Positions 4,769 to 58,538 are shown, counted from the stretch's first letter. The stretch is 64,000 nucleotides of DNA from Gammaproteobacteria bacterium (GCA_965209035.1 OZ242372.1:1152001-1216000), one strand, 5' to 3'. Notes: generated from the letters alone by a model not told the origin. Numbers and translations are program-made.

Positions 4769-4818
4769 TGTATGATCCCACCTACGTTCCGGACTTTTGT
4801 TGTTTTTGTAAAAACAGG
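4769..4818 (-). mobile_element. IS481-family right-end remnant
   Basis: TGTATGATCCCA...CCGGACTTTTGTTGTTTTTGTAAAAAC matches the terminus of the full IS at 30577. Confidence 0.85.
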
Positions 4819-4891
4819 CTTTTTCATTCAGAAGACAGAGCACACTTTGTGGCCAAAACTCTTCCGGGAAGATGCAATGTGATGCGAAATG

Positions 4892-26026: not shown

Positions 26027-26033
26027 TGCATGA
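24999..26033 (+). CDS. IS481-family DDE transposase
   Basis: N-terminal HTH (ISRATFYEW) and integrase core VAFDT / TDNGSEF / PQMNAHCERFNRT / YNLERPH in a single ORF. Confidence 0.93.
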   Translation: MRGTRLRYIGYRVRGFNKMVVLANKYSNMSKTTKIKLDTLAFARKHGVAAALDHAGISRATFYEWQRRFREGGVDELANNYGYQPKRSNTWPPALIDKIRSWRQERPNIGPNKLVCLLPEWCQQRGLPMPSQSTLSRIIADDPDKMRCKPSRSVPKRPRQGAPRERKDIRFVAGRRGECVAFDTLVRIVDGRRFYWHVGIDLFSRFSLVSVDTSAASASSARLFTAMQNILGTRIEKALTDNGSEFAKDFHRVVTANGSTHWYTYPRKPQMNAHCERFNRTLWEEFGCHMRHLLVKDMPAFNAKLIEWLAWYNLERPHYALKQLSPIQFLQKQQKSRNGWDHTA

Positions 26034-27330: not shown

Positions 27331-27543
27331 AAGTGCCTATCATCCCCGCCGTTGCCGTTAAGATCATCGCGCATGCGCCCCAAATCATCCAGCGTCCGCA
27401 CCTCTATCAACCCGTCGCCGTCATCGTCCACATCCGCCGCATCGGTCACGCCATCGCCGTCATCATCCGGGACCGCCACCGCCGCCGGAACCGCCGCCGC
27501 CACCACAAGCGGTGAGCAGAACGGCCGACAAGACGACTGTTAA
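26302..27543 (+). CDS. IS481-family transposase, reading through the right end into flanking DNA
   Basis: Same protein as copy 1 up to NGWDHT. The tail is antisense of a lipoprotein gene fragment. Confidence 0.88.
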   Translation: MRGTRLHYIGYRVRGFNKMVVLANKYSNMSKTTKIKLDTLAFARKHGVAAALDHARISRATFYEWQRRFREGGADELANNYGYQPKRSNTWPPALITKIRSWRQERPNIGAGKLVCLLPEWCQQRGLPMPSQSTLSRIIADDPDKMRCKPSRPVPKRPRQGAPRERKDIRFVAGRRGECVAFDTLVRIVDGRRFYWHVGIDLFSRFSLVSVDTSAASASSARLFTAMQNILGTRIEKVLTDNGSEFAKGFHRVVTANGSTHWYTYPRKPQMNAHCERFNRTLWEEFGCHMRHLLVKDMPAFNAKLIEWLAWYNLERPHYALKQLSPIQFLQKQQKSRNGWDHTKCLSSPPLPLRSSRMRPKSSSVRTSINPSPSSSTSAASVTPSPSSSGTATAAGTAAATTSGEQNGRQDDC

Positions 27544-30523: not shown

Positions 30524-30555
30524 ATTAAAAATTAAAGTATATGTAATGCATTATA

Positions 30556-31605
30556 TCAAATTTGATAACCAAATATTGTATGATCCCACCCATTTCTGGA
30601 CTTTTGTTGTTTTTGCAAAAACTGGATTGGCGAGAGTTGTTTGAGAGCATAATGGGGACGTTCCAGATTATACCAAGCCAACCACTCGATGAGTTTGGCG
30701 TTGAATGCTGGCATATCCTTAACCAAGAGATGCCGCATATGACAACCGAACTCTTCCCAGAGAGTGCGATTAAACCGTTCGCAGTGTGCATTCATTTGCG
30801 GTTTCCTTGGATAGGTATACCAGTGGGTGCTGCCGTTTGCGGTCACGACCCGGTGAAAGTCTTTGGCGAACTCACTGCCATTATCGGTGAGGACTTTTTC
30901 GATCCGAGTGCCGAGTATGTTTTGCATGGCGGTAAAGAGCCGGGCGGAACTGGCCGAAGCAGCCGAGGTGTCGACACTGACCAGTGAGAAGCGGGAAAAT
31001 AGGTCAATGCCGACATGCCAATAAAAGCGCCGGCCATCGACGATGCGGACGAGCGTATCAAAGGCAACACATTCACCTCTCCGGCCCGCAACAAAGCGGG
31101 TGTCCTTGCGCTCGCGCGGAGCACCATGCCGCGGGCGTTTCGGCACGGACCGCGATGGTTTGCACCGCATCTTATCCGGGTCATCGGCAATGATGCGAGA
31201 GAGCGTTGATTGGCTGGGCAGCGGCAGCCCGCGCTGCTGACACCATTCGGGTAACAAGCAGACCAGTTTACCGGCACCGATGTTCGGACGCTGTTGTCGC
31301 CAAGATCGGATCTTGGTAATCAGTGCCGGTGGCCAGGTGTTGGACCGCTTGGGCTGATACCCATAGTTGTTCGCCAGTTCATCGACCCCGCCTTCACGGA
31401 AACGCCGCTGCCACTCGTAGAATGTAGCACGACTGATCCTGGTATGATCCAACGCGGCCGCGACACCATGTTTGCGCGCGAACGCTAAGGTGTCCAGTTT
31501 TATTTTGGTGGTTTTAGACATGTTTAAATATTGATTTGCTAAAACCACCATTTTATTGAAACCGCGCACGCGATAACCAATGTAGCGTAAACGTGTTCCT
31601 CTCAT
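30556..31605 (-). CDS. IS481-family transposase
   Basis: Near-identical to copies 1 and 2. The stop codon lies outside the element. Confidence 0.92.
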   Translation of the reverse strand: MRGTRLRYIGYRVRGFNKMVVLANQYLNMSKTTKIKLDTLAFARKHGVAAALDHTRISRATFYEWQRRFREGGVDELANNYGYQPKRSNTWPPALITKIRSWRQQRPNIGAGKLVCLLPEWCQQRGLPLPSQSTLSRIIADDPDKMRCKPSRSVPKRPRHGAPRERKDTRFVAGRRGECVAFDTLVRIVDGRRFYWHVGIDLFSRFSLVSVDTSAASASSARLFTAMQNILGTRIEKVLTDNGSEFAKDFHRVVTANGSTHWYTYPRKPQMNAHCERFNRTLWEEFGCHMRHLLVKDMPAFNAKLIEWLAWYNLERPHYALKQLSPIQFLQKQQKSRNGWDHTIFGYQI

Positions 31606-31875
31606 TTCCAATGTGCAGTCCGGCTGCCCTCACAAACCATACCGTCTCGCCAGCGGATACACCTAGACAGTTTTATCAACAACAAGCCTCCGCTGTCTGC
31701 GTCGGTGAGAGCAAAACAGCTATCCGTCCTTCTTGCCCGTTTCATTCATCTAGCTCCACATACCGTAGACCTGTTGCCGGATCTATTTTCGACCCGTCCG
31801 ACAGAACATCCGGCTGCTTGATCTGAGGACGCACAATACCAAACTCAGAGTCCAGAACCTTTATGAGATCATGCA
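30577..31875 (-). mobile_element. IS481-family element, copy 3 (inverted relative to copies 1 and 2)
   Basis: Right end TGTATGATCCCACCC at 30577 and left end ATGAGATCATGCA ending at 31875. Confidence 0.94.
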
Positions 31876-42809: not shown

Positions 42810-43263
42810 GCGGGGAGGGTTGAAGGTTGCCCCCCGTTTTTTGGTTTTTAATATTCGCCTGTTTGGCTATTTAAGCGGAGTTGGTTCATTCGTGCTACCC
42901 GTTTTCTCTATTTTTCCCGCTTCCTCGGTTTATTCCCATCCTGCCGTTATTCCGGTTGTTCCGGATCCGGTTTTTGCGCCGTTATCCATTCCAATGCGGC
43001 CTGTTTGATCGCGGCGATTTGTTCTTCGGGGAAGGTTGCAGGTTGCCCCCCCGCTTTTTAATTTTTAATATTCGGCTGTTTGGCTAGTTGAGCGGGGTTG
43101 CCGGTTCATTTGTTTTTCCCGTTTCCTCTTTTTATTTCCCCCGCCGTTGTCCCGGTTGTTTCGGTCATTCCGAATCCGGTTTTTGCGCCGTTATCCATTC
43201 CAAGGCGGCTTGTTTGATCGCGGCAGTTTGTTCTTCGGGGAGATTGAAGTTTGCCCCGCGCTT
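42810..43263. repeat. Degenerate ~210-bp tandem duplication including the alaS 3' end
   Basis: 42965-43056 matches 43174-43263 (ATCCGGTTTTTGCGCCGTTATCCATTCCAA...). TTTTTAATATTCG.CTGTTTGGCTA is also repeated. Confidence 0.85.
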
Positions 43264-45846
43264 GAGACCGCCGCGGGCTTTTTCGGTTGAACCGCCGCCG
43301 CCGCCGCCGAATTGCGAGATTAAATGTTTCAGCAGTTTCTCCGCCGGGTAGTCCCCGGTCTGTTGTTTGCCGGCGAGAATCATGACCGTGATGTTGTCGC
43401 TGCCCGGCGGTTCGTTTAGCAGAATTGCGATGCCGGTTGCAAACTTTTCGCGGCAGTCGTCCGCCAGACGCATAAACGCGGGCTGTGTCAGGTTTTGGCA
43501 GTTAAATACCGCCAAGCGCGTTCCGCCGGCCGACTCGGCGTTTGCATAGGTCCTGCGGAGATCCTTGAGTGCCAGTTCGGCGCGCAACCGATGCAATTCT
43601 TTTTCGGTTTGTATCAGTTTTTTGCGCAGCGAGGAAACATCGGCGAGGAGATGCGCGTCTTCCTTGGTGCCAAGCAGAGTGCCGAGTTTTTTGAGAGTTG
43701 CCCGCCGAGTTCGCTCCGAGTGCACGGCGGCCCTGCCGGTTTGCGCGACCAGGCGGCGAATGCCGGCGGCAACGCCGCTCTCGCTTTCTATGCGGAGGAC
43801 ACCGAGTTCGCCGCTGTTGGCGACATGTGTGCCGCCACAAAGTTCAACCGAGGCGGTCTCTTCCGTGTTTTCTATGGAAACCACCCGCACCCGTTCGCCG
43901 TATTTTTCTCCGAACAACGCAACCGCACCGAGTTTTTTTGCTTCGGTTAGCGGCATTTCTTGCGCGGTGATTGGCATTGTTCGGGCGATGCGTTCATTCA
44001 CCCAGTCCTCCAATTCCGCCAGGGTTGTTGCGTCCAACGCGGTCGTGTGGGCAAAGTCCAACCGAAGGCGGTTCTCCGTTACCAGAGAGCCGCGTTGAAG
44101 GGCATGGTCGCCCAAAATCTGCCGCAGGGCGGCGTGCAGCAGGTGGGTTGCCGTATGGTGGCGGCGAATCTCGGCGCGCTTGTTGGGGTCGGCTGTGGCG
44201 GTTAGGGTGTCGCCGACTTGCATTTGACCTTCTTCGATTTTGCCGAAATGCAGAAAGATGCCGTTTTGCTTTTGGGTGTCCGTCACCCGGAAAAGAGATG
44301 CGCGCGTGACGATTCTGCCCATATCGCCGACCTGCCCGCCACTCTCGGCATAAAAAGGAGTCGTGTCCGGGATGAGAGTGCCGGTTTCACCGGCAGCCAG
44401 GGTTTGGACGGGCTTGCCGTCCGCATTGAGCATTCCAAGCAGTCGCGCCGGCGCTTCGGTTTTATCGTAACCGACAAAGGAAGTGGGTTTTTTTATATCC
44501 GCGGGAATTTTTTGTCGCCGATCGCTGAACAGGCCGTAAGCACGCGAACGCTTGCGTTGTTCTTGCATGGCTTTTTCAAACCCCGCCCAATCGGTTTTCA
44601 GCGAATGCTCGCGCGCCACATCCGCCGTCAGATCCGGCGGAAACCCGTAGGTGTCGTATAGTTTGAAAACTGTCTCGCCGTTCAGCGTGTCCCTTGCTCC
44701 GCCGATCTTGGCGATGGCGGCGGTAAGAATTTCCATTCCCGCTTTCAGAGTGCGCGCAAATTGGGTTTCTTCTTCGGTTAGGACGGCGGAGATTTGTTTT
44801 TGTTGGCGATGTAATTCCGGATAGGCGTCGCCCATGATACCGATTAATGTTGGCAGAAGACGGGGAAAGCAAGGGTTTTGGATGCCAAGTTTGTCCGCAT
44901 GCCGAAGGCCGCGCCGAATGATGCGCCGCAGGACATAGCCGCGCCCTTCGTTGGAGGGCGAGGTGCCGTCGCCGATGAGAAACGCCGATGCACGCAGATG
45001 ATCGGCGATGACGCGCAGAGAGGCAATATTTTGCTCTGGCTTGCCCGCCCCGGCATCGGACGAGCCGGGGCAGAGGGCGCGCGCGCTTTCTATGAGAGGG
45101 ATAAACAGATCCGTCTCGTAATTGTTGTGGACGCCTTGGAGCACCGCGGCCATTCGCTCTAAACCCATGCCGGTATCCACCGAGGGCTTGGGCAGTTTTT
45201 GCATTTTGCCGTCGGCGAAGCGTTCGTACTGCATGAAAACGAGATTCCAGATTTCTATGAATCGCTCTCCTTCGTCTTCGGTTGGGCTGCCGGGCGGGCC
45301 GCCCGCCAATTCTGGGCCGTGGTCGTAAAAGATCTCGGAGCAGGGTCCGCAGGGGCCCGTGTCTCCCATGTTCCAGAAGTTCTCTTCAAGCCGAATGATG
45401 CGTTCCGGCGGGATGCCGATCTTGGTGCGCCAGATGTCGGCCGTTTCGTCATCCGACAGATGCACGGTGATCCATAATTTTTCTGCGGGCAAGCCGATCT
45501 CTCGGGTGAGAAGTTTCCATGCGTGCGCTATGGCGTCGTCCTTGAAATAGTCGCCGAAACTGAAATTGCCGAGCATTTCAAAAAAAGTGTGGTGGCGCGC
45601 CGTATAGCCGACATTCTCCAAATCGTTGTGTTTGCCGCCGGCGCGCACGCATTTTTGGGCGGTTACCGCACGCTGATAGGGGCGTTGTTCGCGCCCAAGA
45701 AACACATCCTTAAAGGGGGCCATGCCGGAATTAACGAAAAGAAGTGTCGGGTCATCCGCGGGGATCAGGGAGCCGCTTTCCACCCGGGTGTGTCCGGCGG
45801 CGACAAAATAGTCGATGAAAGCCCGACGAATTGCAGAAGAAAGCAT
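43165..45846 (-). CDS. alaS: Alanine--tRNA ligase
   Basis: Motifs LLFVNSGM, RHHTFFEMLGNFSFGDYFK, HHTATHLLH, ELCGGTH and GGGGGG. Confidence 0.98.
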   Translation of the reverse strand: MLSSAIRRAFIDYFVAAGHTRVESGSLIPADDPTLLFVNSGMAPFKDVFLGREQRPYQRAVTAQKCVRAGGKHNDLENVGYTARHHTFFEMLGNFSFGDYFKDDAIAHAWKLLTREIGLPAEKLWITVHLSDDETADIWRTKIGIPPERIIRLEENFWNMGDTGPCGPCSEIFYDHGPELAGGPPGSPTEDEGERFIEIWNLVFMQYERFADGKMQKLPKPSVDTGMGLERMAAVLQGVHNNYETDLFIPLIESARALCPGSSDAGAGKPEQNIASLRVIADHLRASAFLIGDGTSPSNEGRGYVLRRIIRRGLRHADKLGIQNPCFPRLLPTLIGIMGDAYPELHRQQKQISAVLTEEETQFARTLKAGMEILTAAIAKIGGARDTLNGETVFKLYDTYGFPPDLTADVAREHSLKTDWAGFEKAMQEQRKRSRAYGLFSDRRQKIPADIKKPTSFVGYDKTEAPARLLGMLNADGKPVQTLAAGETGTLIPDTTPFYAESGGQVGDMGRIVTRASLFRVTDTQKQNGIFLHFGKIEEGQMQVGDTLTATADPNKRAEIRRHHTATHLLHAALRQILGDHALQRGSLVTENRLRLDFAHTTALDATTLAELEDWVNERIARTMPITAQEMPLTEAKKLGAVALFGEKYGERVRVVSIENTEETASVELCGGTHVANSGELGVLRIESESGVAAGIRRLVAQTGRAAVHSERTRRATLKKLGTLLGTKEDAHLLADVSSLRKKLIQTEKELHRLRAELALKDLRRTYANAESAGGTRLAVFNCQNLTQPAFMRLADDCREKFATGIAILLNEPPGSDNITVMILAGKQQTGDYPAEKLLKHLISQFGGGGGGSTEKARGGLKRGANFNLPEEQTAAIKQAALEWITAQKPDSE

Positions 45847-45886
45847 AGGGTTATTTTATGGGAATGGGGACGGGCGACCGTCGGAT

Positions 45887-46255
45887 TGTATGATCCCACT
45901 CATTTTAGGACTTTTGTTGTTTTTGCAAAAACTGGATCGGCGAGAGTTGTTTGAGAGCATAATGGGGGCGTTCGCGATGATACCAAGCCAGCCATGCGAT
46001 GAACTTGGTGTATGATCCCACCCATTTTAGGACTTTTGTTGTTTTTGTAAAAACCGGATTGGCGAGAGTTGTTTGTGGGCATCGCGGGGATCTGCTAAAT
46101 GATATCAACGCATCCCTCTCATCTCAAATCCGCGGGGCACCCGCACCCGTATAGTGCACTGTGTCGCAAGCGAGGGTGCCGCGACAGATTTTGAACAACA
46201 TGCCGCCGCCCGCACCGCGGCGACCGGAGTAGTTGGCAGTCCGGCTTACTCGCCT
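45887..46255 (-). mobile_element. Two tandem IS481 right-end remnants plus a diverged left/leader remnant (internally deleted derivative)
   Basis: TGTATGATCCCA at 45887 and 46009. The segment 46105-46255 aligns with the IS leader region at 31590-31738. Confidence 0.8.
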
Positions 46256-46560
46256 TATATTTTTATTCTTGCGGCACTTGAACCCGGCACCCTCCTGTTT
46301 GCGGGTTCCTTAATAGACGGACTTATTTTTGCAAAAACCGGATCAGCGAGAGTTGTTGAGGGAAAAACGGGGATCAGCCAGCATAAAGGACCCGGGTGCT
46401 TGCCAATAGATTTCGAATAACAGAGATGAGAGGCAGAAGCTAAGAAGTGGGAATTTGGGCGGGCAGTCGTCTTATTTGTCGTGCTCTGCCCTGCCTTGTC
46501 CTGTCCCGCCCCGCCCCGATCTGCCGGTCCGTTCCGGGGCTTCCCTCTTGCCGGTCTCTC

Positions 46561-48393
46561 TTACCGGTCTTGTGCCGAAAGGCCGCCCGGCAGGCAATTC
46601 AGGGCCGGGTATTGGCTGCTCGTGCCGAGATCCCAGACGCGGATGAAGGAGGCACCTGGCCCGTCATCGGTGGCATCTTCCATTTCCTCGCCGGTGTCCG
46701 GATCACACCAGAAGCTGCCCCAGTCGGCATAGATTCCCGTGAACCCGGTCGGCGATTGCAAGGCTGTCGTGCTATGACCCTCGCCCAAATTACCGGCACT
46801 CATAGACTGCATGGTGGTTTGATTATCCCAATAGGTGGCAATGACACCGGTGTCACTATTGTTGCTGCCGATCAATCCGCCGACATCACTGAGACCTGAA
46901 ACAAGCCCGGGGGCGGCATAAGAATAATTAATTTGAGCTCCTGCCCCATCCCCAACCAGGCCGCCAATACGCGATCCGGTTCCCTTAACACTTCCGCCGG
47001 ACACAGCAGCATAGCGAATATCCGCAGTCCTACCGTCCCCAACCAGGCCGCCAACAGCATTACTCCCGGCAACATTCACACCGGACACGGGCGCATAGCG
47101 AATATCCGCATCCTGACCAAGCCCAACCAGGCCGCCAACATTGCTCCTCCCGGAAATATTCACACCGAACACGGACGCATAGCGAATATCCGCATTAAAC
47201 CCCTGCCCAACCAGGCCGCCAACATTATTAATCCCGGAAATATTCACACCGGACACGGACGCATAGCGAATATCCGCATCCTCGCCAAACCCAACCAGAC
47301 CGCCAGCAAAAGAATCCGCCCCGGAAACAACTCCGCCGGATACGACGGCATAGCGGATTGCAGTATTCTGACCATTCCCAACCAGGCCGCCAACAGAATT
47401 ACTCCCGGCAACACTCACACCGGACACGGACGCATTGCGAATATTCGCATTCCTACCATCCCCAACCAGGCCGCCAACAGCAGTGGCACCGCCACTGACA
47501 TTTGCATTCCGGAGATGCAGATTTTGGATATCGCCGGTTAAGGCACCAAACAACCCCACTCCATGGGCAGTATTGCTCGCAGAGATGAACAGATCTGCAA
47601 TACGATAACCCCCGCCGTCAAAGATTCCGGTATAAGACGTGCAAACAATCGCTGATGAACAAGAGCCGATCGGCTGCCAACCTCTGCCGGTCGTCCAGAC
47701 ATCCATCTTACTGCGGTTCGCATAGGATTCCGGGTCGCTAAAATTCAACGAGCGGCTCAATTCGTAGCCATTACAGCCGGAACTCGGGCAACCGACAGAG
47801 CCCATAGCGGTAATATTGGGAAACATCCCATCATCCGTTCCATTGCCATTGAGATTATCGCGCAGCCGTGCCAAGTCATCCAAAGTGCTGATTTCTATGA
47901 GGCTGTTATTATTGTCGTCCACATCTGTCTCATCCAAGATCTCGTCATTGTCATCGTCCGGGTCCTCCCTCAGGGTTGTTTGACATCCGGTAACCAAACT
48001 ATCCGGCAGCTCATCGCCATCCGTGTCCACACTCGCACAGGCATCTGTCCGGAACGCATCGTCCGTATCCGCCACGCCATCATTGTCATCGTCCAAATCC
48101 TCGCCCGCATCGCGACAGCCGTCACGGTCATTGTCCGTAGATGCATTGGAAGTCCAGCCAGTATCGCCGCCGCTCGGACAGGCATCCGCAGTATCCGCAA
48201 TTCCGTCTCCATCCAAGTCTGTGTTCGTTCCCCCGCCGGAACCGCCGCCACCGGAACCGCCACAGGCGGCGAGTAGGACAACCGATAGAGTGATTGTCAA
48301 TAATAGAATGATGCCGCTGCGTGCCGTTTGCCCGGCCGCGGCAATACATGCAATGCAGTTGCTACTGATCGTTTGTTCTTTAAATATTTTCAT
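46561..48393 (-). CDS. TSP3/GLUG-repeat lipoprotein, array member A (8 GGLxG repeats)
   Basis: Start MKIFKEQ by alignment with paralogs; lipobox LLAAC; DxDxDG repeats; ~28-aa ADIRYASVSG...GGLVG repeats. Confidence 0.92.
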   Translation of the reverse strand: MKIFKEQTISSNCIACIAAAGQTARSGIILLLTITLSVVLLAACGGSGGGGSGGGTNTDLDGDGIADTADACPSGGDTGWTSNASTDNDRDGCRDAGEDLDDDNDGVADTDDAFRTDACASVDTDGDELPDSLVTGCQTTLREDPDDDNDEILDETDVDDNNNSLIEISTLDDLARLRDNLNGNGTDDGMFPNITAMGSVGCPSSGCNGYELSRSLNFSDPESYANRSKMDVWTTGRGWQPIGSCSSAIVCTSYTGIFDGGGYRIADLFISASNTAHGVGLFGALTGDIQNLHLRNANVSGGATAVGGLVGDGRNANIRNASVSGVSVAGSNSVGGLVGNGQNTAIRYAVVSGGVVSGADSFAGGLVGFGEDADIRYASVSGVNISGINNVGGLVGQGFNADIRYASVFGVNISGRSNVGGLVGLGQDADIRYAPVSGVNVAGSNAVGGLVGDGRTADIRYAAVSGGSVKGTGSRIGGLVGDGAGAQINYSYAAPGLVSGLSDVGGLIGSNNSDTGVIATYWDNQTTMQSMSAGNLGEGHSTTALQSPTGFTGIYADWGSFWCDPDTGEEMEDATDDGPGASFIRVWDLGTSSQYPALNCLPGGLSAQDR

Positions 48394-48747
48394 AGTAATT
48401 TGTTTGTAATGAATTAATAATAACAGTTCCTTGCATAAGGAATAGTAATAATATACCATATTTCGCCGGATCTTCCTTTAAATTGTATGATCCCACCCAT
48501 TTCCGGACTTTTGTTGTTTTTGTAAAAACCGGATCGGTGAGAGTTGTTGAGGGAAAAACGCGTATCAGCCGGCATAAAAGACCCGGGTGCCTGCCAATAG
48601 ATTTCGAATAATAATAGATGAGAGGCAGAAGCTAAGAAGTTGGAAGTTGGGCGGGCAGTCGTCTTATTTGTCGTACTCTGCCCTGCCTCGTCCTGTCCCG
48701 CCCCGATCTGCCGGTCCGTTCCGGGGCTTCCCTCTTGCCGGCCTCTC

Positions 48748-50409
48748 TTACCGGTCTTGTGCCGAAAGGCCGCCCGGCAGGCAATTCAGGGCCGGGTATT
48801 GGCTGTCCGTGCCGAGATCCCAGACGCGGATGAAACCGGGCGGTTGGGAAGAACTTGTCATTTCCTCGCCGGTGTTCGGGTTGCACCAGAAGTTACCCCA
48901 GACCTCATAGATGCTCCCGGCAAACTCGGTCGGCGATTGTAAGGCTGTCGTGCTATGACCCTCGCCCAAATCACCGGCACTCATAGACTGCATGGTGGTT
49001 TGATTGTCCCAATAGGTGGCAATAACATCGGTGTCACTATCGGTGAAGCCGATCAATCCACCGACATCACTACCGCCGGAAACAAGCCCAGGGGCGGCAT
49101 AAGAATAATTAATTTGAGATCCTGTCCCCGTCCCAACTAGGCCGCCAACACGCGATCCGGTTCCCTTAACACTTCCACCGGACACGGACGCATAGCGAAT
49201 ATCCGCATTAATCCCTTGCCCAGCCAGGCCGCCAACATTACTACTCCCGGAAACATTCACACCGGACACGGACGCATAGCGAATATCCGCATTCCTACCA
49301 AACCCAACCAGGCCGCCAGCAAAAGAATCCGCCCCGGAAACAACTCCGCCGGATACGACGGCATAGCGAATATCCGCATCCTCGCCATTCCCAACCAGGC
49401 CGCCAACAGAAAAACCCCCGGCAACACTCACACCGGACACGGACGCATTGCGAATATCCGCATTCCTACCATACCCAACCAGGCCGCCAATAGCAGTGGC
49501 ACTGCCATTGACATTTGCATTCCGGAGATGCAGATTTTGGATATCGCCGGTTAAGGCACCAAATAACCCCACTCCATTGGCAGTATTGCTCGCAGAGATA
49601 AACAGATCTGCAATACGATAACCCCCGCCGTCAAAGATTCCGGTATAAGACGTGCAATCAATCGCTGATGAACAAGAGCCGATCGGCTGCCAACCTCTGC
49701 CGGTCGTCCAGACAGACCGGTTGCCACTGCCCGCGGCATAGGAATCCGCATCGCTAAAATTCAACGAGCGAGTTAATTCGTAGCCATTACAGCCGGAACT
49801 CGGGCAACCCACAGAACCCATAGCGGTAATCTCGGGAAACATCCCATCATCCGTTCCATTGCCATTGAGATTATCGCGCAGCCGTGCCAAGTCATCCAAA
49901 GTGCTGATTTCTATGAGGCTGTTATTATTGTCGTCCACATCTGTCTCATCCAAGATCTCGTCATTGTCATCGTCCGGGTCCTCCCTCAGGGTTGTTTGAC
50001 ATCCGGTAACCAAACTATCCGGCAGCTCATCGCCATCCGTGTCCACACTCGCACAGGCATCTGTCCGGAACGCATCGTCCGTATCCGCCACGCCATCATT
50101 GTCATCGTCCAAATCCTCGCCCGCATCGCGACAGCCGTCACGGTCATTGTCCGTAGATGCATTGGAAGTCCAGCCAGTATCGCCGCCGCTCGGACAAGCA
50201 TCCGCAGTATCCGCAATGCCGTCTCCATCCAAGTCTGTGTTCGTTCCCCCGCCGGAACCGCCGCCGGAACCACCGCCACAGGCGGCGAGTAGGACAACCG
50301 ACAGAGCGATTGTCAATAATAGAATGATGCCGCTGCGTGCCGTTTGCCCGGCCGCGGCAATACATGCAATGCAGTTGCTACTGATCGTTTGTATATCAAA
50401 TATGTTCAT
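48748..50409 (-). CDS. TSP3/GLUG-repeat lipoprotein, array member B (6 repeats)
   Basis: Near-identical N-terminal half to A, with fewer GLUG units. Confidence 0.92.
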   Translation of the reverse strand: MNIFDIQTISSNCIACIAAAGQTARSGIILLLTIALSVVLLAACGGGSGGGSGGGTNTDLDGDGIADTADACPSGGDTGWTSNASTDNDRDGCRDAGEDLDDDNDGVADTDDAFRTDACASVDTDGDELPDSLVTGCQTTLREDPDDDNDEILDETDVDDNNNSLIEISTLDDLARLRDNLNGNGTDDGMFPEITAMGSVGCPSSGCNGYELTRSLNFSDADSYAAGSGNRSVWTTGRGWQPIGSCSSAIDCTSYTGIFDGGGYRIADLFISASNTANGVGLFGALTGDIQNLHLRNANVNGSATAIGGLVGYGRNADIRNASVSGVSVAGGFSVGGLVGNGEDADIRYAVVSGGVVSGADSFAGGLVGFGRNADIRYASVSGVNVSGSSNVGGLAGQGINADIRYASVSGGSVKGTGSRVGGLVGTGTGSQINYSYAAPGLVSGGSDVGGLIGFTDSDTDVIATYWDNQTTMQSMSAGDLGEGHSTTALQSPTEFAGSIYEVWGNFWCNPNTGEEMTSSSQPPGFIRVWDLGTDSQYPALNCLPGGLSAQDR

Positions 50410-50766
50410 AATTTATTTTTGTAATTGTGAATTAATAATAAAGTTCCCTAAATAAGGAATAGTAATAATATACCATATTTCGCCGGATCTTCCTTTAAAT
50501 TGTATGATCCCACCCATTTCCGGACTTTTGTTGTTTTTGTAAAAACCGGATCGGTGAGAATTGTTGAGGGAAAAACGGGGATCAGCCAGCATAAAGGACC
50601 CGGGTGCTTGCCAATAGATTTCGAATAACAGAGATGAGAGGCAGAAGCTAAGAAGTGGGAATTTGGGCGGGCAGTCGTCTTATTTGTCGTGCTCTGCCCT
50701 GCCTCGTCCCGATCTGCCGGTCCGTTCCGGGGCTTCCCTCTTGCCGGCCTCTCTTACCGGCCCCTC

Positions 50767-52614
50767 TTACCGGTCTTGTGCCGAGAGGCCGCCCGGCAGG
50801 CAATTCAGAGCCGGGTATTGGCTGTCCGTGCCGAGATCCCAGACGCGGATGAAGGGGGCGGGCAACTCGGTGGTGCTTTCCGCACCGGTGTTCGGGTTGC
50901 ACCAAGCATTGCCCCAGTCGGCATAGATTCCCGTGAACTCGGTCGGCGATTGCAAGGCTGTCGTGCTATGACCATCGCCCAAATTACCGTCACTCATAGA
51001 CTGCATGGTGGTTTGATTGTCCCAATAGGTGGCAATGACATTGGTCTCAGCATTGGCGCTGCCGATCAATCCGCCAAGATCACCGGGACCTGAAACAAGC
51101 CCGGGGGCGGCATAAGAATAATTAATTTGAGCTTTTTCCCCATACCCAACCAGACCGCCAGCATCACCAAAACCCTCGCCGCCGCTCCCGGCAACACTTC
51201 CGCCGAGCACATAGGCATAGCGAATATCCGCATTCCTACCAAACCCAACCAGGCCGCCAACAGCAGTAAGCCCGGAAACATTTCCGCCGGACACGGACGC
51301 ATAGCGAATATCCGCATTCTCACCATGCCCAACCAGGCCGCCAACAAAATCCCCGGAAACATCCATACCGGACACGAACGCATAGCGAATATCCGCATTT
51401 AGACCATTCCCAGCCAGACCGCCAGCTCTATTCTCGACAGCATTCCCGGCAACACTTCCGCCGGACACGGACGCATAGCGAATATCCGCATTCCTACCAT
51501 ACCCAACCAGGCCGCCAACAGCAGCAAAATCCTCGCCGCCGCTCTCGGCAACACTTCCGCCGGACACGGACGCATAGCGAATATCCGCATTCTCACCATA
51601 CCCAACCAGGCCGCCAACATTATTACTCCCGGCAACACTTCCGCCGGACACGGACGCATTGCGAATAGACGCATTCGTACCATACCCAACCAGGCCGCCC
51701 ACATCAGCGGCACCGCCACTGACATCTGCATTCCGGAGATGCAGATTTTGGATATCGCCGGTTAAGGCACCAAACAACCCCACTCCATAGGTAGTATTGC
51801 TCGCAGAGATGAACAGATCGGCAATACGATAACCCCCGCCGTCAAAGATTCCGGTATAAGAGGTGCAATTATTCGCTGATGAACAAGAGCCGATCGGCTG
51901 CCAACCTCTGTCGGTCGTCCAGACAGACCGGTTGCCACTGCCCGCGGCATAGGAATCCGCATCGTTAAAATTCAACGAGCGAGTTAATTCGTAGCCATTA
52001 CAGCCGGAACTCGGGCAACCGACAGAACCCATAGCGGTAATATTGGGAAACATCCCATCATCCGTTCCATTGCCATTGAGATTATCGCGCAGCCGTGCCA
52101 AGTCATCCAAAGTGCTGATTTCTATGAGGCTGTTATTATTGTCGTCCACATCTGTCTCATCCAAGATCTCGTCATTGTCATCGTCCGGGTCCTCCCTCAG
52201 GGTTGTTTGACATCCGGTAACCAAACTATCCGGCAGCTCATCGCCATCCGTGTCCACACTCGCACAGGCATCTGTCCGGAACGCATCGTCCGTATCCGCC
52301 ACGCCATCATTGTCATCGTCCAAATCCTCGCCCGCATCGCGACAGCCGTCACGGTCATTGTCCGTAGATGCATTGGAAGTCCAGCCAGTATCGCCGCCGC
52401 GCGGACAGGCATCCGCAGTATCCGCAATGCCGTCTCCATCCGTGTCCGCTTCCGGAGGAGGGGTGCCACCGCCGCCACCACCACAGGCGGCGAGTAGGAC
52501 AACCGACAGAGCGATTGTCAATAATAGAATGATGCCGCTGCGTGCCGTTTGTCCGGCCGCGGCAATACATGCAATGCAGCTGCTACTGATCGTTTGTATA
52601 TTAAATATGTTCAT
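50767..52614 (-). CDS. TSP3/GLUG-repeat lipoprotein, array member C (8 repeats)
   Basis: Same architecture, with extended loops such as ESGGEDFAA and GSGGEGFGDA. Confidence 0.92.
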   Translation of the reverse strand: MNIFNIQTISSSCIACIAAAGQTARSGIILLLTIALSVVLLAACGGGGGGTPPPEADTDGDGIADTADACPRGGDTGWTSNASTDNDRDGCRDAGEDLDDDNDGVADTDDAFRTDACASVDTDGDELPDSLVTGCQTTLREDPDDDNDEILDETDVDDNNNSLIEISTLDDLARLRDNLNGNGTDDGMFPNITAMGSVGCPSSGCNGYELTRSLNFNDADSYAAGSGNRSVWTTDRGWQPIGSCSSANNCTSYTGIFDGGGYRIADLFISASNTTYGVGLFGALTGDIQNLHLRNADVSGGAADVGGLVGYGTNASIRNASVSGGSVAGSNNVGGLVGYGENADIRYASVSGGSVAESGGEDFAAVGGLVGYGRNADIRYASVSGGSVAGNAVENRAGGLAGNGLNADIRYAFVSGMDVSGDFVGGLVGHGENADIRYASVSGGNVSGLTAVGGLVGFGRNADIRYAYVLGGSVAGSGGEGFGDAGGLVGYGEKAQINYSYAAPGLVSGPGDLGGLIGSANAETNVIATYWDNQTTMQSMSDGNLGDGHSTTALQSPTEFTGIYADWGNAWCNPNTGAESTTELPAPFIRVWDLGTDSQYPALNCLPGGLSAQDR

Positions 52615-52982
52615 AATTTATTTTTGTAATTGTGAATTAATAATAAAGTTCCCTAAATAAGGAATAGTAATAATATACCATATTTCGCCGGATCTTCCTT
52701 TAAATTGTATGATCCCACCCATTTCCGGACTCTTTTTGTTTTTGCAAAAACCGGATCGGCGAGAGTTGTTGAGGGAAAAACGCGTATCAGCCGGCATAAA
52801 AGACCCGGGTGCCTGCCAATAGATTTTGAATAACAGATGAGAGGTAGAGGCTAAGAATAAGTTGGAAGTTGGGCGGGCAGTTGCCTTATTTGTCGTGCTC
52901 TGCCCTGCCTCGGCCTGTCCCGCCCCGATCTGCCGGTCCGTTTCGGGGCTTCCCTCTTGCCGACCTCTCTTACCGGCCCCTC

Positions 52983-54998
52983 TTACCGGCCTTGCGCCGA
53001 GAGGCCGCCCGGCAGGCAATTCAGAGCCGGGTATTGGCTGCTCGTGCCGAGATCCCAGACGCGGATGAAGGAGGCACCTGGCCCGTCATCGGTGGCATCT
53101 TCCATTTCCTCGCCGGTGTTCGGATCACACCAGAAGTTACCCCAGACCTCATAGATGCTCCCGGCAAACTCGGTCGGCGATTGCAAGGCTGTCGTGCTAT
53201 GACCCTCGCCCAAATTACCGGTACTCATAGACTGCATGGTGGTTTGATTGTCCCAATAGGTGGCAATAACATTGGTTTCACTATCGGTGATGCCGATCAA
53301 TCCACCGACAACATTGGGAGCTGAAACAGGCCCGGGGGCGGCATAAGAATAATTAATTTGAACTTCTTCCCCCAGCCCAACCAGGCCGCCAACACGCGAT
53401 CCGGTTGTTCCCTTAACACTTCCGCCGGACACATAAACATGACGAATATCCGCATCCTCACCATACCCAACCAGACCGCCAGCAAAAGAACTCGCCCCGG
53501 AAACATTCACACCGGACACGGACGCATAGCGAATATCCGCATCCTCACCATACCCAACCAGGCCGCCAACAGTATTACTCCCGGAAACATTTCCGCCGGA
53601 CACGGACGCATAGCGAATATCCGCGTCCTCACCATTCCCAACCAGGCCGCCGGCAATACTCCCGGCAACACTTCCGCCGGACACGGACGCATTGCGAATA
53701 TCCGCAGTCCTACCGTCCCCAACCAGGCCGCCAGCAGCAATACTCTCGGCAACACTTCCGCCGGACACGGACGCATAGCGAATAGACGCATTCTCACCAT
53801 ACCCAACCAGGCCACCGGCAAAATTACTCCTCCCGGAAACATTCACACCGGACACGGATGCATAGCGAATATCCGCATTAATCCCTTGCCCAACCAGGCC
53901 GCCAACAGAAAAATTCCCGGCAACACTCACACCGGACACGGACGCATAGCGAATATCCGCATTCTCACCGTCCCCAACCAGGCCGCCAACAGCAAAACTC
54001 CCGGCAACACTTCCGCCGGACACGGACGCATTGCGAATATCCGCAGTCCTACCATACCCAACCAGGCCGCCCACATCCACATTAGTGGCACCGCCATTGA
54101 CATTTGCATTCCGGAGATGCAGATTTTGGATATCACCGGTTAAGGCACCAAACAACCCCACTCCATAGGTAGTATTGCTCGCAGAGATGAACAGATCTGC
54201 AATACGATAACCCCCGCCGTCAAAGATTCCGGTATAAGAGGTGCAATTATTCGCTGATGAACAAGAGCCGATCGGCTGCCAACCTCTGCCGGTCGTCCAG
54301 ACATCCATCTTACTGCGGTTCGCATAGGAATCCGCATCGCTAAAATTCAACGAGCGAGTTAATTCGTAGCCATTACAGCCGGAACTCGGGCAACCCACAG
54401 AACCCATAGCGGTAATCTCGGGAAACATCCCATCATCCGTTCCATTGCCATTGAGATTATCGCGCAGCCGTGCCAAGTCATCCAAAGTGCTGATTTCTAT
54501 GAGGCTGTTATTATTGTCGTCCACATCTGTCTCATCCAAGATCTCGTCATTGTCATCGTCCGGGTCCTCCCTCAGGGTTGTTTGACATCCGGTAACCAAA
54601 CTATCCGGCAGCTCATCGCCATCCGTGTCCACACTCGCACAGGCATCTGTCCGGAACGCATCGTCCGTATCCGCCACGCCATCATTGTCATCGTCCAAAT
54701 CCTCGCCCGCATCGCGACAGCCGTCACGGTCATTGTCCGTAGATGCATTGGAAGTCCAGTCGGTATCGCCGCCGCTCGGACAGGCATCCGCAGTATCCGC
54801 AATGCCGTCTCCATCCAAGTCTGTGTTCGTTCCCCCGCCGGAACCGCCGCCACCGGAACCACCGCCACAGGCGGCGAGTAGGACAACCGATAGAGTGATT
54901 GTCAATAATAAAATGATGCCGCTGCGTGCCGTTTGCCCGGCCGCGGCAATACATGCAATGCAGTTGCTACTGATAGTTTGTATATTAAATATGTTCAT
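52983..54998 (-). CDS. TSP3/GLUG-repeat lipoprotein, array member D (10 repeats)
   Basis: Same architecture as A-C. Confidence 0.92.
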   Translation of the reverse strand: MNIFNIQTISSNCIACIAAAGQTARSGIILLLTITLSVVLLAACGGGSGGGGSGGGTNTDLDGDGIADTADACPSGGDTDWTSNASTDNDRDGCRDAGEDLDDDNDGVADTDDAFRTDACASVDTDGDELPDSLVTGCQTTLREDPDDDNDEILDETDVDDNNNSLIEISTLDDLARLRDNLNGNGTDDGMFPEITAMGSVGCPSSGCNGYELTRSLNFSDADSYANRSKMDVWTTGRGWQPIGSCSSANNCTSYTGIFDGGGYRIADLFISASNTTYGVGLFGALTGDIQNLHLRNANVNGGATNVDVGGLVGYGRTADIRNASVSGGSVAGSFAVGGLVGDGENADIRYASVSGVSVAGNFSVGGLVGQGINADIRYASVSGVNVSGRSNFAGGLVGYGENASIRYASVSGGSVAESIAAGGLVGDGRTADIRNASVSGGSVAGSIAGGLVGNGEDADIRYASVSGGNVSGSNTVGGLVGYGEDADIRYASVSGVNVSGASSFAGGLVGYGEDADIRHVYVSGGSVKGTTGSRVGGLVGLGEEVQINYSYAAPGPVSAPNVVGGLIGITDSETNVIATYWDNQTTMQSMSTGNLGEGHSTTALQSPTEFAGSIYEVWGNFWCDPNTGEEMEDATDDGPGASFIRVWDLGTSSQYPALNCLPGGLSAQGR

Positions 54999-55361
54999 AA
55001 TTTATTTTTGTAATTGTGAATTAATAATAAAGTTCCCTAAATAAGGAATAGTAATAGTATATCATATTTCGCCGGCTATTTTGTATGATTGTATGATCCC
55101 ACCCATTTCCGGATTTGTGTTGTTTTTGCAAAAACCGGATCGGCGAGAGTTGTTGAGGGAAAAACGCGTATCAGCCGGCATAAAGAACCCGGGTGCCTGC
55201 CAATAGATTTCGAATAACAGATGAGAGGCAGAGGCTAAGAATAAGTTGGAAGTTGGGCGGGCAGTCGCCTTATTTGTCGTGCTCTGCCTCGCCCTGTCCC
55301 GCCCCGAGCTGCCGGTCCGTTCCGGGGCTTCCCTCTTGCCGACCTCTCTTACCGGCCCTTC

Positions 55362-58199
55362 TTACCGGTCTTGTGCCGAGAGGCCGCCCGGCAGGCAATT
55401 CAGAGCCGGGTATTGTGTGCTGTTACCGAGATCCCAGACGCGGATGAAACCAGGCGGTTGGGAAGAACTTGTCATTTCCTCGCCGGTGTTCGGGTTGCAC
55501 CAAGCATTGCCCCAGTCGACATAGATTCCCGTGAACTCGGTCGGCGATTGCAATGCTGTCGTGCTATGACCCTCGCCCAAATCACTGGCACTCATAGACT
55601 GCATGGTGGTTTGATTGTCCCAGTAGGAAGCAATGACATCGGTGACAGGATTGGCTCTGCCGATCAATCCACCGACAGCACCGGAACCTGAAACAAGCCC
55701 GGGGGCGGCATAAGAATAATTAATTTGAGCTCCTCCCCCCTGCCCAACCAGGCCGCCAACATTCGATCCGGTTCCCTTAACACTTCCACCGGACACAGCA
55801 GCATAGCGAATATCCGCAGTCCTACCGTCCCCAACCAGGCCGCCAACAATATTACTCCCGGAAACATTCACACCGGACACGGACGCATAGCGAATATCCG
55901 CATCCTGACCAAGCCCAACCAGGCCGCCAACAGCATTACTCCCGGAAACATTCACACCGGACACGGACGCATAGCGAATATCCGCATCCGGACCAAGCCC
56001 AACCAGGCCGCCAACATAAAAACTCCCCCCGGAAACATCCACACCGGACACGGACGTATAGCGAATATCCGCATCCTCACCAAGCCCAACCAGGCCGCCA
56101 GCAATACTCCCGGCAACACTCACACCGGACACGGACGCATTGCGAATATCCGCAGTCCTACCGTCCCCAACCAGGCCGCCAGCAGCATTACTGCCGGTAA
56201 CACTTCCGCCGGACACGGACGCATAGCGAATATCCGCATTAAGCCCCTGCCCAACCAGGCCGCCAGCAGAAGAGCGCGCCCCGGAAACAACTCCGCCGGA
56301 TACGACGGCATAGCGAATTGTAGTATTCTGACCATTCCCAACCAGGCCGCCAACAGCAAAAATCCCGGCAACACTCACACCGGACACGGACGCATTGCGA
56401 ATATCCGCATTCTCACCGTCCCCAACCAGGCCGCCAGCACTCCCGCGAGGAACACCCTCGGAAACACTCCTGGAAACACTTCCGCCGGACACGGACGCAT
56501 TGCGAATAGACGCATTCCTACCATTCCCAACCAGGCCGCCCACATCCACATCAGTGGCACCGCCACTGACATTTGCATTCCGGAGATGCAGATTTTGGAT
56601 ATCGCCGGTTAAGGCACCAAACAACCCCACTCCATAGGTAGTATTGCTCGCAGAGATGAACAGATCGGCAATACGATAACCGCCGCCGTCGAAGATGCCG
56701 GTATAAGAGGTGCAATTATCCGCTGATGAACAGGAGCCGATCGGCTGCCAACCGCTGCCGGTCGTCCAGACAGCCCGGTTGCCACTGCCCGCGGCATAGG
56801 AAGCATCATCACTAAAATTGAACGAGCGAGTTAATTCATAACCCACACAGCCGCCGTCATCGTCATCCGGGCAGCCCATAGAATCCACAGAGGTGATCTC
56901 GAGGATACGGCCATCATCCGCCCCATCGCCGTTCAGATCATCGCGCAGCCGCGCCAAGTCATCCAAAGTATGGATTTCTATCAAGCTATTATTATTGTCA
57001 TCCACATCCTCTGTCAAGGTAGTATTCACACCAGTCCTGCAGCCGGCAGATAATCTGTCCGGTGCTCCGTCTCCATCCGTGTCGGTGCTCGCACAGGCAT
57101 CTGTCCGGAACGCATCGTCCGTATCCGCCACGCCATCATTGTCATCGTCCAAATCCTCGTTGCTGTCATCGCGACAGCCATCGCGATCATTGTCCGTAGA
57201 TGCATTGGAAGTCCAGCCGGTAACACCGGTCGGACAAGTATCCATACTGTCTTCCAGGCCATCATTGTCATCGTCACCATCACAGGCATCACCGCCGTCG
57301 TCCGCATTGTCCGTATTGATTTGATTCAAATTGGCAACCAACGGACAATTATCGCCCGTATCCGCCACGCCGTCATTGTCATCGTCCGGATCTTCTATTA
57401 AGGTGGTATTCACGCCGGTCCTGCAGACGGCAGATAATCTGTCCGGATTGCCGTCCTCATCCGTATCGGTACTCGCACAGGCATCTGTCCGGAACGCATC
57501 TTCCGTATCCGCCACGCCATCATTGTCATCGTCATCATCACAGGCATCACCGCCGTCATCCGCATTGTCCGTGTTGGCTTGGTCCGCATTGGCAACCAAC
57601 GGACAATTATCGATATTATTATCCTCACGGTCATCGTCAATATCTGTGCCTACACCCGCTCCCGTTCCCGTTGTACTTGACACAGGAGGTGAGGTCACGA
57701 TAATGCCGCTCTCATAACGCACCCCAATCGTGATGTGATAGGTGATGTTATTGGTTAAGTCCGTAATGTTGTAGATGACCCGAGCACGCGGCGCAACATT
57801 GACAGAATTAAGTTCTGTTGTGCCGCCAACGCTCGCATTGTCACGGCGTGTGGTAATAACGAACCCGGTGATATTCATCCGGTTCGGATTAGTCCAACCC
57901 ACGAGAATATAATCCTCACCGGCCAGAGTCTGGATATTGGAAACAACCTGGGAATTCTGAGTGCCGCCACCGATGCTGCCGCTGCCGTTGCCGCCACAAC
58001 TTGTCAGGACCAAACCGAGCATACCCGCCAGCAGCACACCGTAAAAACGAGCCGGTATGCGCATCCGTCGTGCCCTATTGGGTTCGGGAAAAGCCTTAAA
58101 TGTATTAAAAGTATTAAGGAGACGCACAGATACCGTGCCTCTTTGTTCGCGGCACATTGCTTTCGCCGACCGCACAGGAAAAAAGTGTAACTGATTCAT
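55362..58199 (-). CDS. FN3/TSP3/GLUG-repeat lipoprotein, array member E (11 repeats)
   Basis: Lipobox VLTSC; FN3-like ILVGWTNPN; expanded DNCP/DACD Asp-rich repeats; C-terminal half shared with A-D. Confidence 0.92.
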   Translation of the reverse strand: MNQLHFFPVRSAKAMCREQRGTVSVRLLNTFNTFKAFPEPNRARRMRIPARFYGVLLAGMLGLVLTSCGGNGSGSIGGGTQNSQVVSNIQTLAGEDYILVGWTNPNRMNITGFVITTRRDNASVGGTTELNSVNVAPRARVIYNITDLTNNITYHITIGVRYESGIIVTSPPVSSTTGTGAGVGTDIDDDREDNNIDNCPLVANADQANTDNADDGGDACDDDDDNDGVADTEDAFRTDACASTDTDEDGNPDRLSAVCRTGVNTTLIEDPDDDNDGVADTGDNCPLVANLNQINTDNADDGGDACDGDDDNDGLEDSMDTCPTGVTGWTSNASTDNDRDGCRDDSNEDLDDDNDGVADTDDAFRTDACASTDTDGDGAPDRLSAGCRTGVNTTLTEDVDDNNNSLIEIHTLDDLARLRDDLNGDGADDGRILEITSVDSMGCPDDDDGGCVGYELTRSFNFSDDASYAAGSGNRAVWTTGSGWQPIGSCSSADNCTSYTGIFDGGGYRIADLFISASNTTYGVGLFGALTGDIQNLHLRNANVSGGATDVDVGGLVGNGRNASIRNASVSGGSVSRSVSEGVPRGSAGGLVGDGENADIRNASVSGVSVAGIFAVGGLVGNGQNTTIRYAVVSGGVVSGARSSAGGLVGQGLNADIRYASVSGGSVTGSNAAGGLVGDGRTADIRNASVSGVSVAGSIAGGLVGLGEDADIRYTSVSGVDVSGGSFYVGGLVGLGPDADIRYASVSGVNVSGSNAVGGLVGLGQDADIRYASVSGVNVSGSNIVGGLVGDGRTADIRYAAVSGGSVKGTGSNVGGLVGQGGGAQINYSYAAPGLVSGSGAVGGLIGRANPVTDVIASYWDNQTTMQSMSASDLGEGHSTTALQSPTEFTGIYVDWGNAWCNPNTGEEMTSSSQPPGFIRVWDLGNSTQYPALNCLPGGLSAQDR

Positions 58200-58538
58200 T
58201 ATTTTCTATTGTTTATTATTGTTTTCTGTCATGATTAATATTAATTTTTTTGAGCATCAGTCAACCATTATTATAACCTTAATTTCCAAAATTATGCAGT
58301 ATTGTGTATAATCCGGATTTTTGTTGTTTTTGTAAAAAGTTGCATATATGCCTTTCTAACATACATAGGCGGAAAAACCGTATTTCTGAGACATCATGTT
58401 TTTTCGTTATATTCTGTTTGTAGTTTCCTTAAACGGATATCAAAAAACTCAAAAAATTGATGCAGATTTTTTGTTTCTTGCAAACTTAAAATATCGCTGC
58501 CTTTAAATAAGGTTTGAAAGAGCGAATACGGACAAGGC

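Follow-up and report, generated by a model that had tools for sequence, protein, structure and literature searches.

The window analysed here is a stretch of 64,000 nt from Gammaproteobacteria bacterium (GCA_965209035.1 OZ242372.1:1152001-1216000), and coordinates refer to this whole window unless a genome contig is named. It carries three full copies of an insertion sequence (IS) resembling IS481, an array of five lipoprotein genes (A to E) with a further paralogue, the alanine--tRNA ligase gene alaS and, ahead of several of these genes, short right-end fragments of the same IS. The initial annotation had suggested that the right ends were domesticated as promoter or operator modules, or that they serve as transposase-recognised sites by which lipoprotein cassettes are mobilised and amplified. 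We consider it likely that the fragments derive, by decay, from copies of an active IS481-like element of 1299 bp that homes to sigma-70-type promoters, and that their position near gene starts reflects target choice by the IS and not domestication. Backing for this explanation comes from the geometry and orientation of insertion, the target duplications, the same rule in distant relatives, empty sites and a common junction.

The right-terminal motif TGTATGATCCCA occurs without mismatch on the + strand at 4769, 30577, 45887, 46009, 48484, 50501, 52706 and 55090, and at up to two mismatches it was matched 15 times in the window against 4.4 expected, a number reached in 0 of 100 shuffles. By blastn the fragments measure 52 nt (4769), 125 nt (45887), 100 nt (46009), 82 nt (50501) and 65 nt each (48484, 52706 and 55090), with 84-92% identity to the intact copy; the sequence at 58305-58339 lies under the blast threshold, yet is readable as a right end with about 11 nt missing. 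No left-end fragment was found by blastn in the window besides those of the three full copies. All these ends are directed (- strand) toward a gene start at a distance of 41-107 nt: 41 nt for alaS, 91 nt for each of lipoproteins B, C and D, 106-107 nt from the degenerate end for lipoprotein E, and 54 nt from intact copy 3 for the gene starting at 30523. For lipoprotein A, the end lies 90 nt from the likely true start and just 24 nt from the start of the longest open reading frame (ORF). Thus the transposase-less fragments listed in the initial annotation are borne out by the exact motif matches and by blastn, and their stated direction into gene starts holds in the window and, as given below, genome-wide. 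The two alaS stubs (45902-45929 and 46024-46051) carry CCTAAAATG where CC(A/G)GAAATG is usual; they are the only two among 89 right ends to have this variant.

The hexamer TACAAT, which had been proposed as a -10 box spanning the joint of end and flank, was confirmed at all six places named for it (30577, 45887, 48484, 50501, 52706 and 55090) and, across the genome, forms at the joint of 18 of the 80 unique right flanks, because the terminal TACA meets an A/T-rich target. As a working -10 box it fails, being a by-product of the terminus without a -35 or TG partner; the motif-called -10 lies at about position 29 of the flank.

The full element measures 1299 bp and has a single ORF of 345-351 amino acids (aa) without programmed frameshift, whose product matches the Pfam domains rve_3 (9e-14), rve, HTH_32 and HTH_28, the helix-turn-helix (HTH) being N-terminal. 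IS481 was the best of five IS family models and IS3 the second (99.9 bits), and the score with the NCBIfam IS481 model NF033577 was 172.3 bits, under its 224-bit cut-off; we therefore regard the element as a divergent lineage and term it IS481-like. Pfam and NCBIfam gave rve/IS481/IS3-type matches only, and none to a Mutator-like (p-MULT) transposase. The inverted repeats (TGCATGATCTCA on the left, TGTATGATCCCA on the right) have TG...CA termini and a short target duplication, as in IS481, and the transposase ORF passes through the right repeat, its last codons reading W-D-H-T (copy 3: ...NGWDHT). A blastn search of the 2.24-Mb genome with the intact copy, the basis of all our genome-wide IS counts, returned 20 full copies together with partial ones, of which 69 have the right end, 32 the left end and 17 are internal. 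The transposase is 100% identical to the query in six copies, and a perfect 5-bp target duplication abuts the inverted repeats in 14 of the 20 full copies, which fixes the boundaries of the element, demonstrates recent activity and means that the promoter beyond the right end is host DNA.

Copies 1 and 2 of the window adjoin without spacer, copy 1 lacking its last base. The AAGTG flank shared by copies 2 and 3 implies an inversion of 27332-30576 through recombination between these opposed copies, and it is because of this inversion that copy 3 has no target duplication of its own.

The flanks of the right ends follow a sharp positional rule. Positions were counted outward from the right terminus, the first flank base being 1, and a -10 box was scored as a hexamer matching TATAAT at five or more of six positions; 89 right flanks were reduced to 80 unique ones by collapsing similar sequences. 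Such hexamers start at positions 27, 28, 29, 30, 31 and 32 in 4, 9, 20, 7, 5 and 3 cases, and their distribution is flat over the other right-flank positions and over the left flanks. A 9-mer filter recognised IS sequence in 17 of these 80, and they were discarded, at least two rule-fitting ones wrongly. Of the 63 that were left, 36 have a -10 hexamer in the interval 27-32; the numbers for three control intervals of equal size are 1, 2 and 4, and for the left flanks 2 of 39. In intergenic DNA free of IS sequence such hexamers occur at a background rate of 9.1 per kb, which corresponds to an expectation of about 5%. The rule applies to full copies (10/16) as to solo ends (26/47), and in 11 of the 14 full copies with target duplication the hexamer starts at 28-30. 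With gene edges from a crude ORF-based caller (1672 genes in the genome, about 86% of it coding), 51 of the 56 right ends lying no more than 300 nt from a gene edge point into a co-directional start, and for left ends the figure is 21 of 30. The 200 nt downstream of the right ends contain no tRNA gene.

A -10 box at flank positions 29-34 places the duplicated 5 bp at promoter positions of about -40 to -36. The element would thus integrate directly upstream of the -35 site, some 28 nt before the -10, with its right end and the reading direction of its transposase always toward the promoter, and because of this fixed geometry every insertion puts the right end 40-110 nt ahead of a gene start. 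A -35 consensus is absent from the flanks of this genome (3/40), where only the -10 position is conserved. In the host RpoD (L133, C1 840419-841126, - strand) the recognition helix of region 4.2 reads TKAQVRQAE, compared with TRERIRQIE in solved RpoDs. The positions of this helix contact the -35 site, and the altered helix may be connected with the absence of TTGACA boxes from the targeted promoters. Because a general promoter model failed, being too noisy (8.1 -10-like hexamers per kb antisense vs 9.1 per kb), the description of the host as -35-less draws only on the IS flanks and the RpoD helix.

Sequence reads of run X4, which bear the same species label and are 92-97% alike to the window at about 2x depth, offer an empty site at alaS. 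They cover the gene up to 45886, where three reads pass into unrelated sequence, with the break exactly at 45886|45887. A 22-nt motif taken from the relative's sequence past this empty site was not found in our genome at up to three mismatches. The X4 relative also has reads that match the IS right end (45905-46091) at 92% or more, and it therefore has a related element, though its alaS promoter is unoccupied.

Table 1. Coordinates of the IS copies, right ends, promoter boxes and genes in the window
Feature	Position	Strand	Remarks
Full IS copy 1, 97.7% to copy 3	24729..26026	+	head-to-tail against copy 2
Full IS copy 2	26027..27331	+	right flank AAGTG = left flank of copy 3
Full IS copy 3, reference, 1299 bp	30577..31875	-	
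Solo right end, IS bases 1248-1299	4769..4821	-	terminus 4769; atypical, TATAAT 6 nt past terminus
Promoter-proximal solo right end, bases 1175-1299, 88.9%	45887..46011	-	
Older, distal solo right end, bases 1200-1299, 84%	46009..46108	-	stacked on proximal end
Partial right end, bases 1218/1235-1269	46323..46373	-	closes the array
Solo right end, bases 1235-1299, ahead of lipoprotein A	48484..48548	-	
Solo right end ahead of lipoprotein B	50501..50581	-	
Solo right end ahead of lipoprotein C	52706..52770	-	
Solo right end ahead of lipoprotein D	55090..55154	-	
Degenerate right end ahead of lipoprotein E	58305..58339	-	about 11 nt missing
alaS -10 box TAAAAT, motif call	45853..45858	-	flank positions 29-34
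-10 box TATATT, TGG before it	48450..48455	-	flank 29-34; same in cassettes B, C; TATACT in D
-10 box TATAAT ahead of lipoprotein E	58270..58275	-	repeated promoter type, flank 30-35
alaS, alanine--tRNA ligase	43165..45846	-	TIGR00344, 922 bits
Lipoprotein A, GLUG motif, lipobox LAAC	46561..48393	-	likely start 22 codons inside longest ORF
Lipoprotein B	48748..50409	-	
Lipoprotein C	50767..52614	-	
Lipoprotein D	52983..54998	-	
Lipoprotein E, fn3, TSP_3, GLUG, lipobox LTSC	55362..58199	-	
Paralogous lipoprotein gene, lipobox LAAC	28325..30523	-	54 nt past right end of copy 3
Conserved 187-nt 3' tail of lipoprotein family	46374..46560	-	joined to IS base 1235 at 14 loci
214-nt repeat	46109..46322	.	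between IS base 1269 and second right end

The same geometry was found in distant relatives of the element. In genomes of two other families (G339 and G258), elements at 38-41% aa identity end in ...GGCC(C/T)NATACA, and their flanks read CAACA-TTGACT-17-TATGGT, TTGGAA...TATAAT with the -10 at 29, and TATAAT at 31. A profile built from 30 homologues retrieved 80 metagenome loci at 29-43% identity, with termini placed by a scan for the terminal motif, which is present in 71 of the 80; 64 have 36 nt or more of flank. Of these 64 loci, 43 have a -35-like box beginning at flank position 6, no other position accounting for more than three; TTG occupies positions 6-8 in 49, and a -10-like box starts at 28, 29 and 30 in 10, 33 and 6 loci, respectively. 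At these offsets both boxes are present in 35 loci, the -10 only (28-30) in 13 and the -35 only in 8. The 5-bp duplication is perfect in 11 of the 41 loci with both ends found, and the promoter is therefore host DNA there too. Sixty loci have an ORF that stays open across the terminus, and in 30 of them its first in-frame stop is provided by the TGA of TTGACA; in our genome the in-frame stops past the terminus are scattered. A scan of genome contigs with the transposase gave just two distant loci, few copies, mostly single and degenerate, were seen in 41 relatives and 400 genomes of the class, and the multi-copy relative P0077 was not found in G017.

The nearest named relative, the IS481-like ISKpn28 of Klebsiella and Escherichia plasmids, is at 34% aa identity and has the terminal motif ...TGGTGGACCCATACA in common. 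On a Klebsiella plasmid its end is followed by TCTCC-TTGCCT-17-TATCCT, and many plasmids match the flank only, from the first base past the terminus, and so represent empty sites. The promoter at this main site lies inside the hok/DUF5431 toxin-antitoxin locus of Klebsiella plasmids, antisense to it, and would be an antisense-RNA promoter. In a second context ISKpn28 stands before CACGC-TTGAAG-17-TATTCT ahead of a marR gene, and a relative on a Nitrosophilus plasmid before AATAA-TTGACT...TAAAAT.

The count of solo ends and of their orientation over the whole genome, which the initial annotation had put forward as a check, gave 60 right-only and 23 left-only partial hits after removal of nine two-ended internal-deletion derivatives, and the orientation is not random. 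The inner breakpoints of the stubs span base 854 to base 1263. This excess of right ends could be explained by an asymmetry of deletion: a deletion from inside the element would run leftwards freely, and one that ran rightwards past the terminus would remove the promoter 5 bp away, so that right-end stubs of any length accumulate because deletions cannot cross the terminus without promoter loss. New copies would home to the same spot and displace older stubs upstream, leaving tandem copies and stacks. The member nearer to the active element is indeed the promoter-proximal one in 7 of 10 stacks, the two ends ahead of alaS (88.9% proximal, 84% distal) fit a younger proximal copy, and the copy at 680636 reuses the 5-bp target ATTTG of its older neighbour.

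The nine two-ended derivatives are MITE-like (miniature inverted-repeat transposable elements) in keeping both IS ends; the shortest, of about 100 bp, occurs twice. They include those at C1 320324-320990, 425555-425909, 1140600-1141522, 1250142-1250487, 1349664-1349764, 1371155-1371660, 1483949-1484673 and 1494181-1494497. A MITE reading of the window fragments was rejected, as these keep no left end.

All five genes of the array code for lipoproteins (lipobox LAAC or LTSC) with GLUG, TSP_3 and fn3 motifs. Cassettes A-D have the whole spacer in common, namely the 187-nt 3' tail, IS bases 1235-1299 and a promoter with a -10 of the TGG-TATATT type, and the stub is therefore an internal, co-duplicated part of the repeated unit. 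Every inter-cassette spacer holds a right end, with a partial one (46323-46373) after the last cassette and a degenerate one before the first. The ends do bound the cassettes, as had been claimed; the accompanying caveat that the array copies are not independent was justified, the four copies of 65-82 nt sharing one deletion junction and counting as one event.

Fourteen loci of the genome have the junction of tail and IS base 1235. In eight of them the stub reaches the terminus, and in six it is broken after base 1269 by a 214-nt repeat, which is followed by a second stub (bases 1200-1299); the array itself ends, at 46323-46373, in this broken form. The 214-nt repeat has six full-length copies in the genome at 91-100% identity, always between base 1269 and a second stub. 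Its other copies are at C1 563242, 724083, 733639, 1128183 and 1365119, a weak ORF of 88 aa on the + strand overlaps it, and scans of the window for Rfam families (gathering threshold) and tRNA genes, the repeat included, gave no match. Block homology stops exactly at the IS terminus beside differing sequences, some of them once more with a -10 near position 29, and the N-terminal parts of the units are 97% alike.

The recurrent 14-locus junction suggests, on sequence grounds, that recombination at end remnants built the array, the stubs probably having seeded it as matching sequence. In what appears to us the simplest account, one lipoprotein gene would have had a stub before its promoter and, past its 3' tail, a second stub belonging to the next promoter. 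Unequal recombination between the promoter stub and the 35-nt stub fragment past the tail could then have given the first duplication, an exchange that would produce the observed inner junction of tail, bases 1235-1299 and promoter, and whole 2-kb units would have been amplified afterwards.

A second conserved promoter or leader type, TTTTGGAAATTAAGGTTATAATAATGGTTGAG...CTCAAAAA at 58240-58300, precedes lipoprotein E and at least eight large paralogues (C1 near 527548, 723437, 723983, 733539, 865265, 1027040, 1131055 and 1133549). Right-end stubs stand 20-31 nt ahead of the -10 of this leader with differing inner breakpoints, which suggests independent hits on paralogous promoters. The window also has three long tandem-repeat regions unrelated to the IS, at 13647-16893, 37519-38466 and 330-993, which repeat every 350-464 (approximately), 162 and about 165 nt.

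Several observations weigh against promoter homing as set out here, or against parts of it. No five-of-six -10 hexamer is present in the interval 27-32 of 27 of the 63 right flanks, and these include two from the window, that of the 4769 end, with TATAAT at position 6, and that of copy 3, with its hexamer at position 22. Several of the flanks are paralogous promoters and thus not fully independent, the gene calls come from the crude caller, and the -10 boxes were called from sequence motifs and not from mapped starts. The alaS empty site rests on three reads. Among seven contexts of ISKpn28 type, two have the promoter geometry, one is a rearranged main site and four have none, which may be due to plasmid rearrangement. 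Three of the ten stacks do not fit a younger proximal copy, two stacks look like plain tandem duplications of a stub, and a first crossover would have had only the short homology of 35 nt to work with.

How the element recognises a promoter can be approached from the positions of the two boxes. We infer that the promoter is read through the bound RNA polymerase holoenzyme, on the side of sigma region 4 and the C-terminal domain of the alpha subunit (alpha-CTD); docking on polymerase is favoured because sites without a -35 in this genome still hold the -10 offset, and because -10-only and -35-only sites of the metagenome set keep the same offsets. Direct read-out of DNA, an alternative for the recognition step only, would have the transposase bind the hexamers, or a -10-like word resembling TGTATGAT, and cut at a fixed distance. 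The inverted repeat TGTATGAT does resemble TG-TATAAT, targets similar to their own termini are used by IS911 and IS30, and the constancy of the metagenome sites (-35 at position 6 in 43/64, TTG at 6-8 in 49/64) has the precision of a DNA-binding domain. A single DNA word is nevertheless hard to square with the 8 sites that have only a -35 and the 13 that have only a -10, the -35 positions carry no information in this genome although its -10 offset holds, and the spread of that offset over 27-32 is as expected for an anchor on the polymerase footprint. Direct read-out is therefore a possibility that we think somewhat doubtful.

Other explanations concern the association of right ends and promoters as a whole. 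One, in line with the promoter or operator module of the initial annotation, is that the right end is retained for a promoter function, whether by promoting outward, by acting like an UP element or by binding a regulator. Full young copies with target duplications, however, lie at the same offset as the stubs, so that position is set at insertion and not by later selection, and distant relatives obey the same rule. The terminus is also too far from the -10, at 28 nt, to supply a -35, no two-hexamer promoter exists in the cassette spacer, where TACAAT has neither a -35 nor a TG partner, and with breakpoints from 854 to 1263 no minimal module is conserved beyond about 35 nt. A perfect palindrome in the stub, GTTTTTGCAAAAAC, speaks for exaptation, but it encodes the conserved transposase residues FLQKQQ. 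There remain in favour of exaptation the TACAAT at the joint in 18 of 80 flanks, an outward promoter mapped at the 3' end of ISRme5, of the IS481 family, according to the accessible part of PMC4803752, and the variant of the alaS stubs, which creates TTTGCA-16-TAAAAT and TTTACA-16-TAAAAT toward alaS. Local exaptation at alaS may be possible, but it does not account for the genome-wide pattern, for which we judge exaptation improbable. A hybrid promoter of an IS-borne -35 and a resident -10 was rejected, since it needs 16-18 nt or less and the -35 position (flank 6-11) is host DNA.

Mobilisation or circularisation of cassettes by transposase acting on right ends is very improbable to our mind, even though homology of the lipoprotein blocks ends exactly at the terminus in several contexts, with termini about 29 nt before a -10. 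The right ends that flank the cassettes are direct and no left end is present at any cassette boundary in the window; DDE elements of such a kind need two inverted ends, and the arrangement is not that of a composite transposon. Recombination between stubs already at promoters gives the same pattern without transposition, and it is in this weaker form, as recombination substrates, that the amplifying role given to the ends in the initial annotation survives. Random insertion followed by purifying selection, under which only copies near but outside promoters would persist, has two points in its favour: survivors must be intergenic in a genome that is about 86% coding, and IS distributions are generally shaped by selection, as the accessible text of PMC2942039 has it. 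Selection cannot, however, yield a peak sharp to 1-2 nt or a single orientation, and the same text reports that IS are depleted between divergent genes, which is the opposite trend. ISKpn28 moreover sits at a promoter within a coding region (the DUF5431/hok locus), and a second copy took the same 5-bp target, ATTTG, as its neighbour. We regard this explanation as hardly tenable.

Promoter homing by an IS481-like element invites comparison with several known systems. The conjugative TnGBS transposons, the ISLre2 family and the ISKra4 group, which have Mutator-like transposases, insert 15-17 bp before the -35, and in the accessible text of PMC3942029 their homing is called unique to Mutator-like transposases among prokaryotic elements and is ascribed to a proposed polymerase tether by analogy with Ty3. 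These elements resemble ours in homing to promoters but differ in superfamily, Mutator-like there and rve/IS481-like here, the two being unrelated, and in the offset upstream of the -35, which is 15-17 bp in that text and 5 bp in our case; here, too, the transposase ORF crosses the terminus, its relatives stopping at the TGA of TTGACA (30/60). Ty3 is alike in that an integrase-fold enzyme is set at a fixed offset by the transcription machinery (Pol III start sites), but it is eukaryotic and RNA-mediated and has other partners, so that this is an analogy and not a homology of mechanism. IS481 of Bordetella and ISRme5 of Cupriavidus share with our element a single-ORF DDE transposase with N-terminal HTH and the absence of a stop codon inside the element, the protein tail being site-dependent. 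IS481 targets NCTAGN. ISRme5 has the outward promoter at its 3' end mentioned above (PMC4803752, accessible part), and for IS481 the accessible text of a large survey (PMC9208149) mentions only biases in neighbour orientation. Promoter homing was not described for these two, or for the IS481 family at large, nor was the target choice of ISKpn28, in the literature searched, which did not extend to ISfinder, TnPedia or the supplementary tables of PMC3942029 and PMC9208149, where IS481-type elements might be listed. ISKpn28 itself has in common with our element the terminal motif ...TGGTGGACCCATACA and, in two contexts with empty sites, the order end|5 nt|TTGNNN-17-TATNNT, but it differs in host and sequence, and four of its seven contexts lack a promoter. 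Solo long terminal repeats (LTRs) and other transposon stubs that serve as recombination substrates likewise flank amplified genes as one-ended direct remnants; solo LTRs arise by LTR-LTR recombination, and the right ends described here would arise by internal deletion of an IS kept in place by the promoter beside it.

Homing of a DDE transposon to promoters was found in print only for the Mutator-like elements TnGBS, ISLre2 and ISKra4. Its likely occurrence in an unrelated integrase-fold family, with another offset that is sharp to a single base, would represent a convergent 'safe harbour' strategy and a second, independent system in which to learn how a transposase reads a promoter. The genome studied here would provide a natural experiment, the -35 sequence being absent and the offset kept, and ISKpn28, with both occupied and vacant sites known, would be a tractable representative from enterobacteria. 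Genome annotation could use the right-end stubs of the lineage as promoter markers accurate to a few bases, and the stubs would account both for one-sided IS remnants and for a route to lipoprotein gene arrays. As a wider and quite tentative picture, an IS481-like lineage extending from uncultivated bacteria to ISKpn28 on Klebsiella plasmids might dock on promoter-bound polymerase and not read DNA, landing at -41 even in a -35-less host with an altered sigma-70 recognition helix, and its stubs, protected by the promoter, might provide mobile sites of recombination through which lipoprotein arrays are assembled and rearranged. If true, this would be a transposon-seeded route to surface variation.

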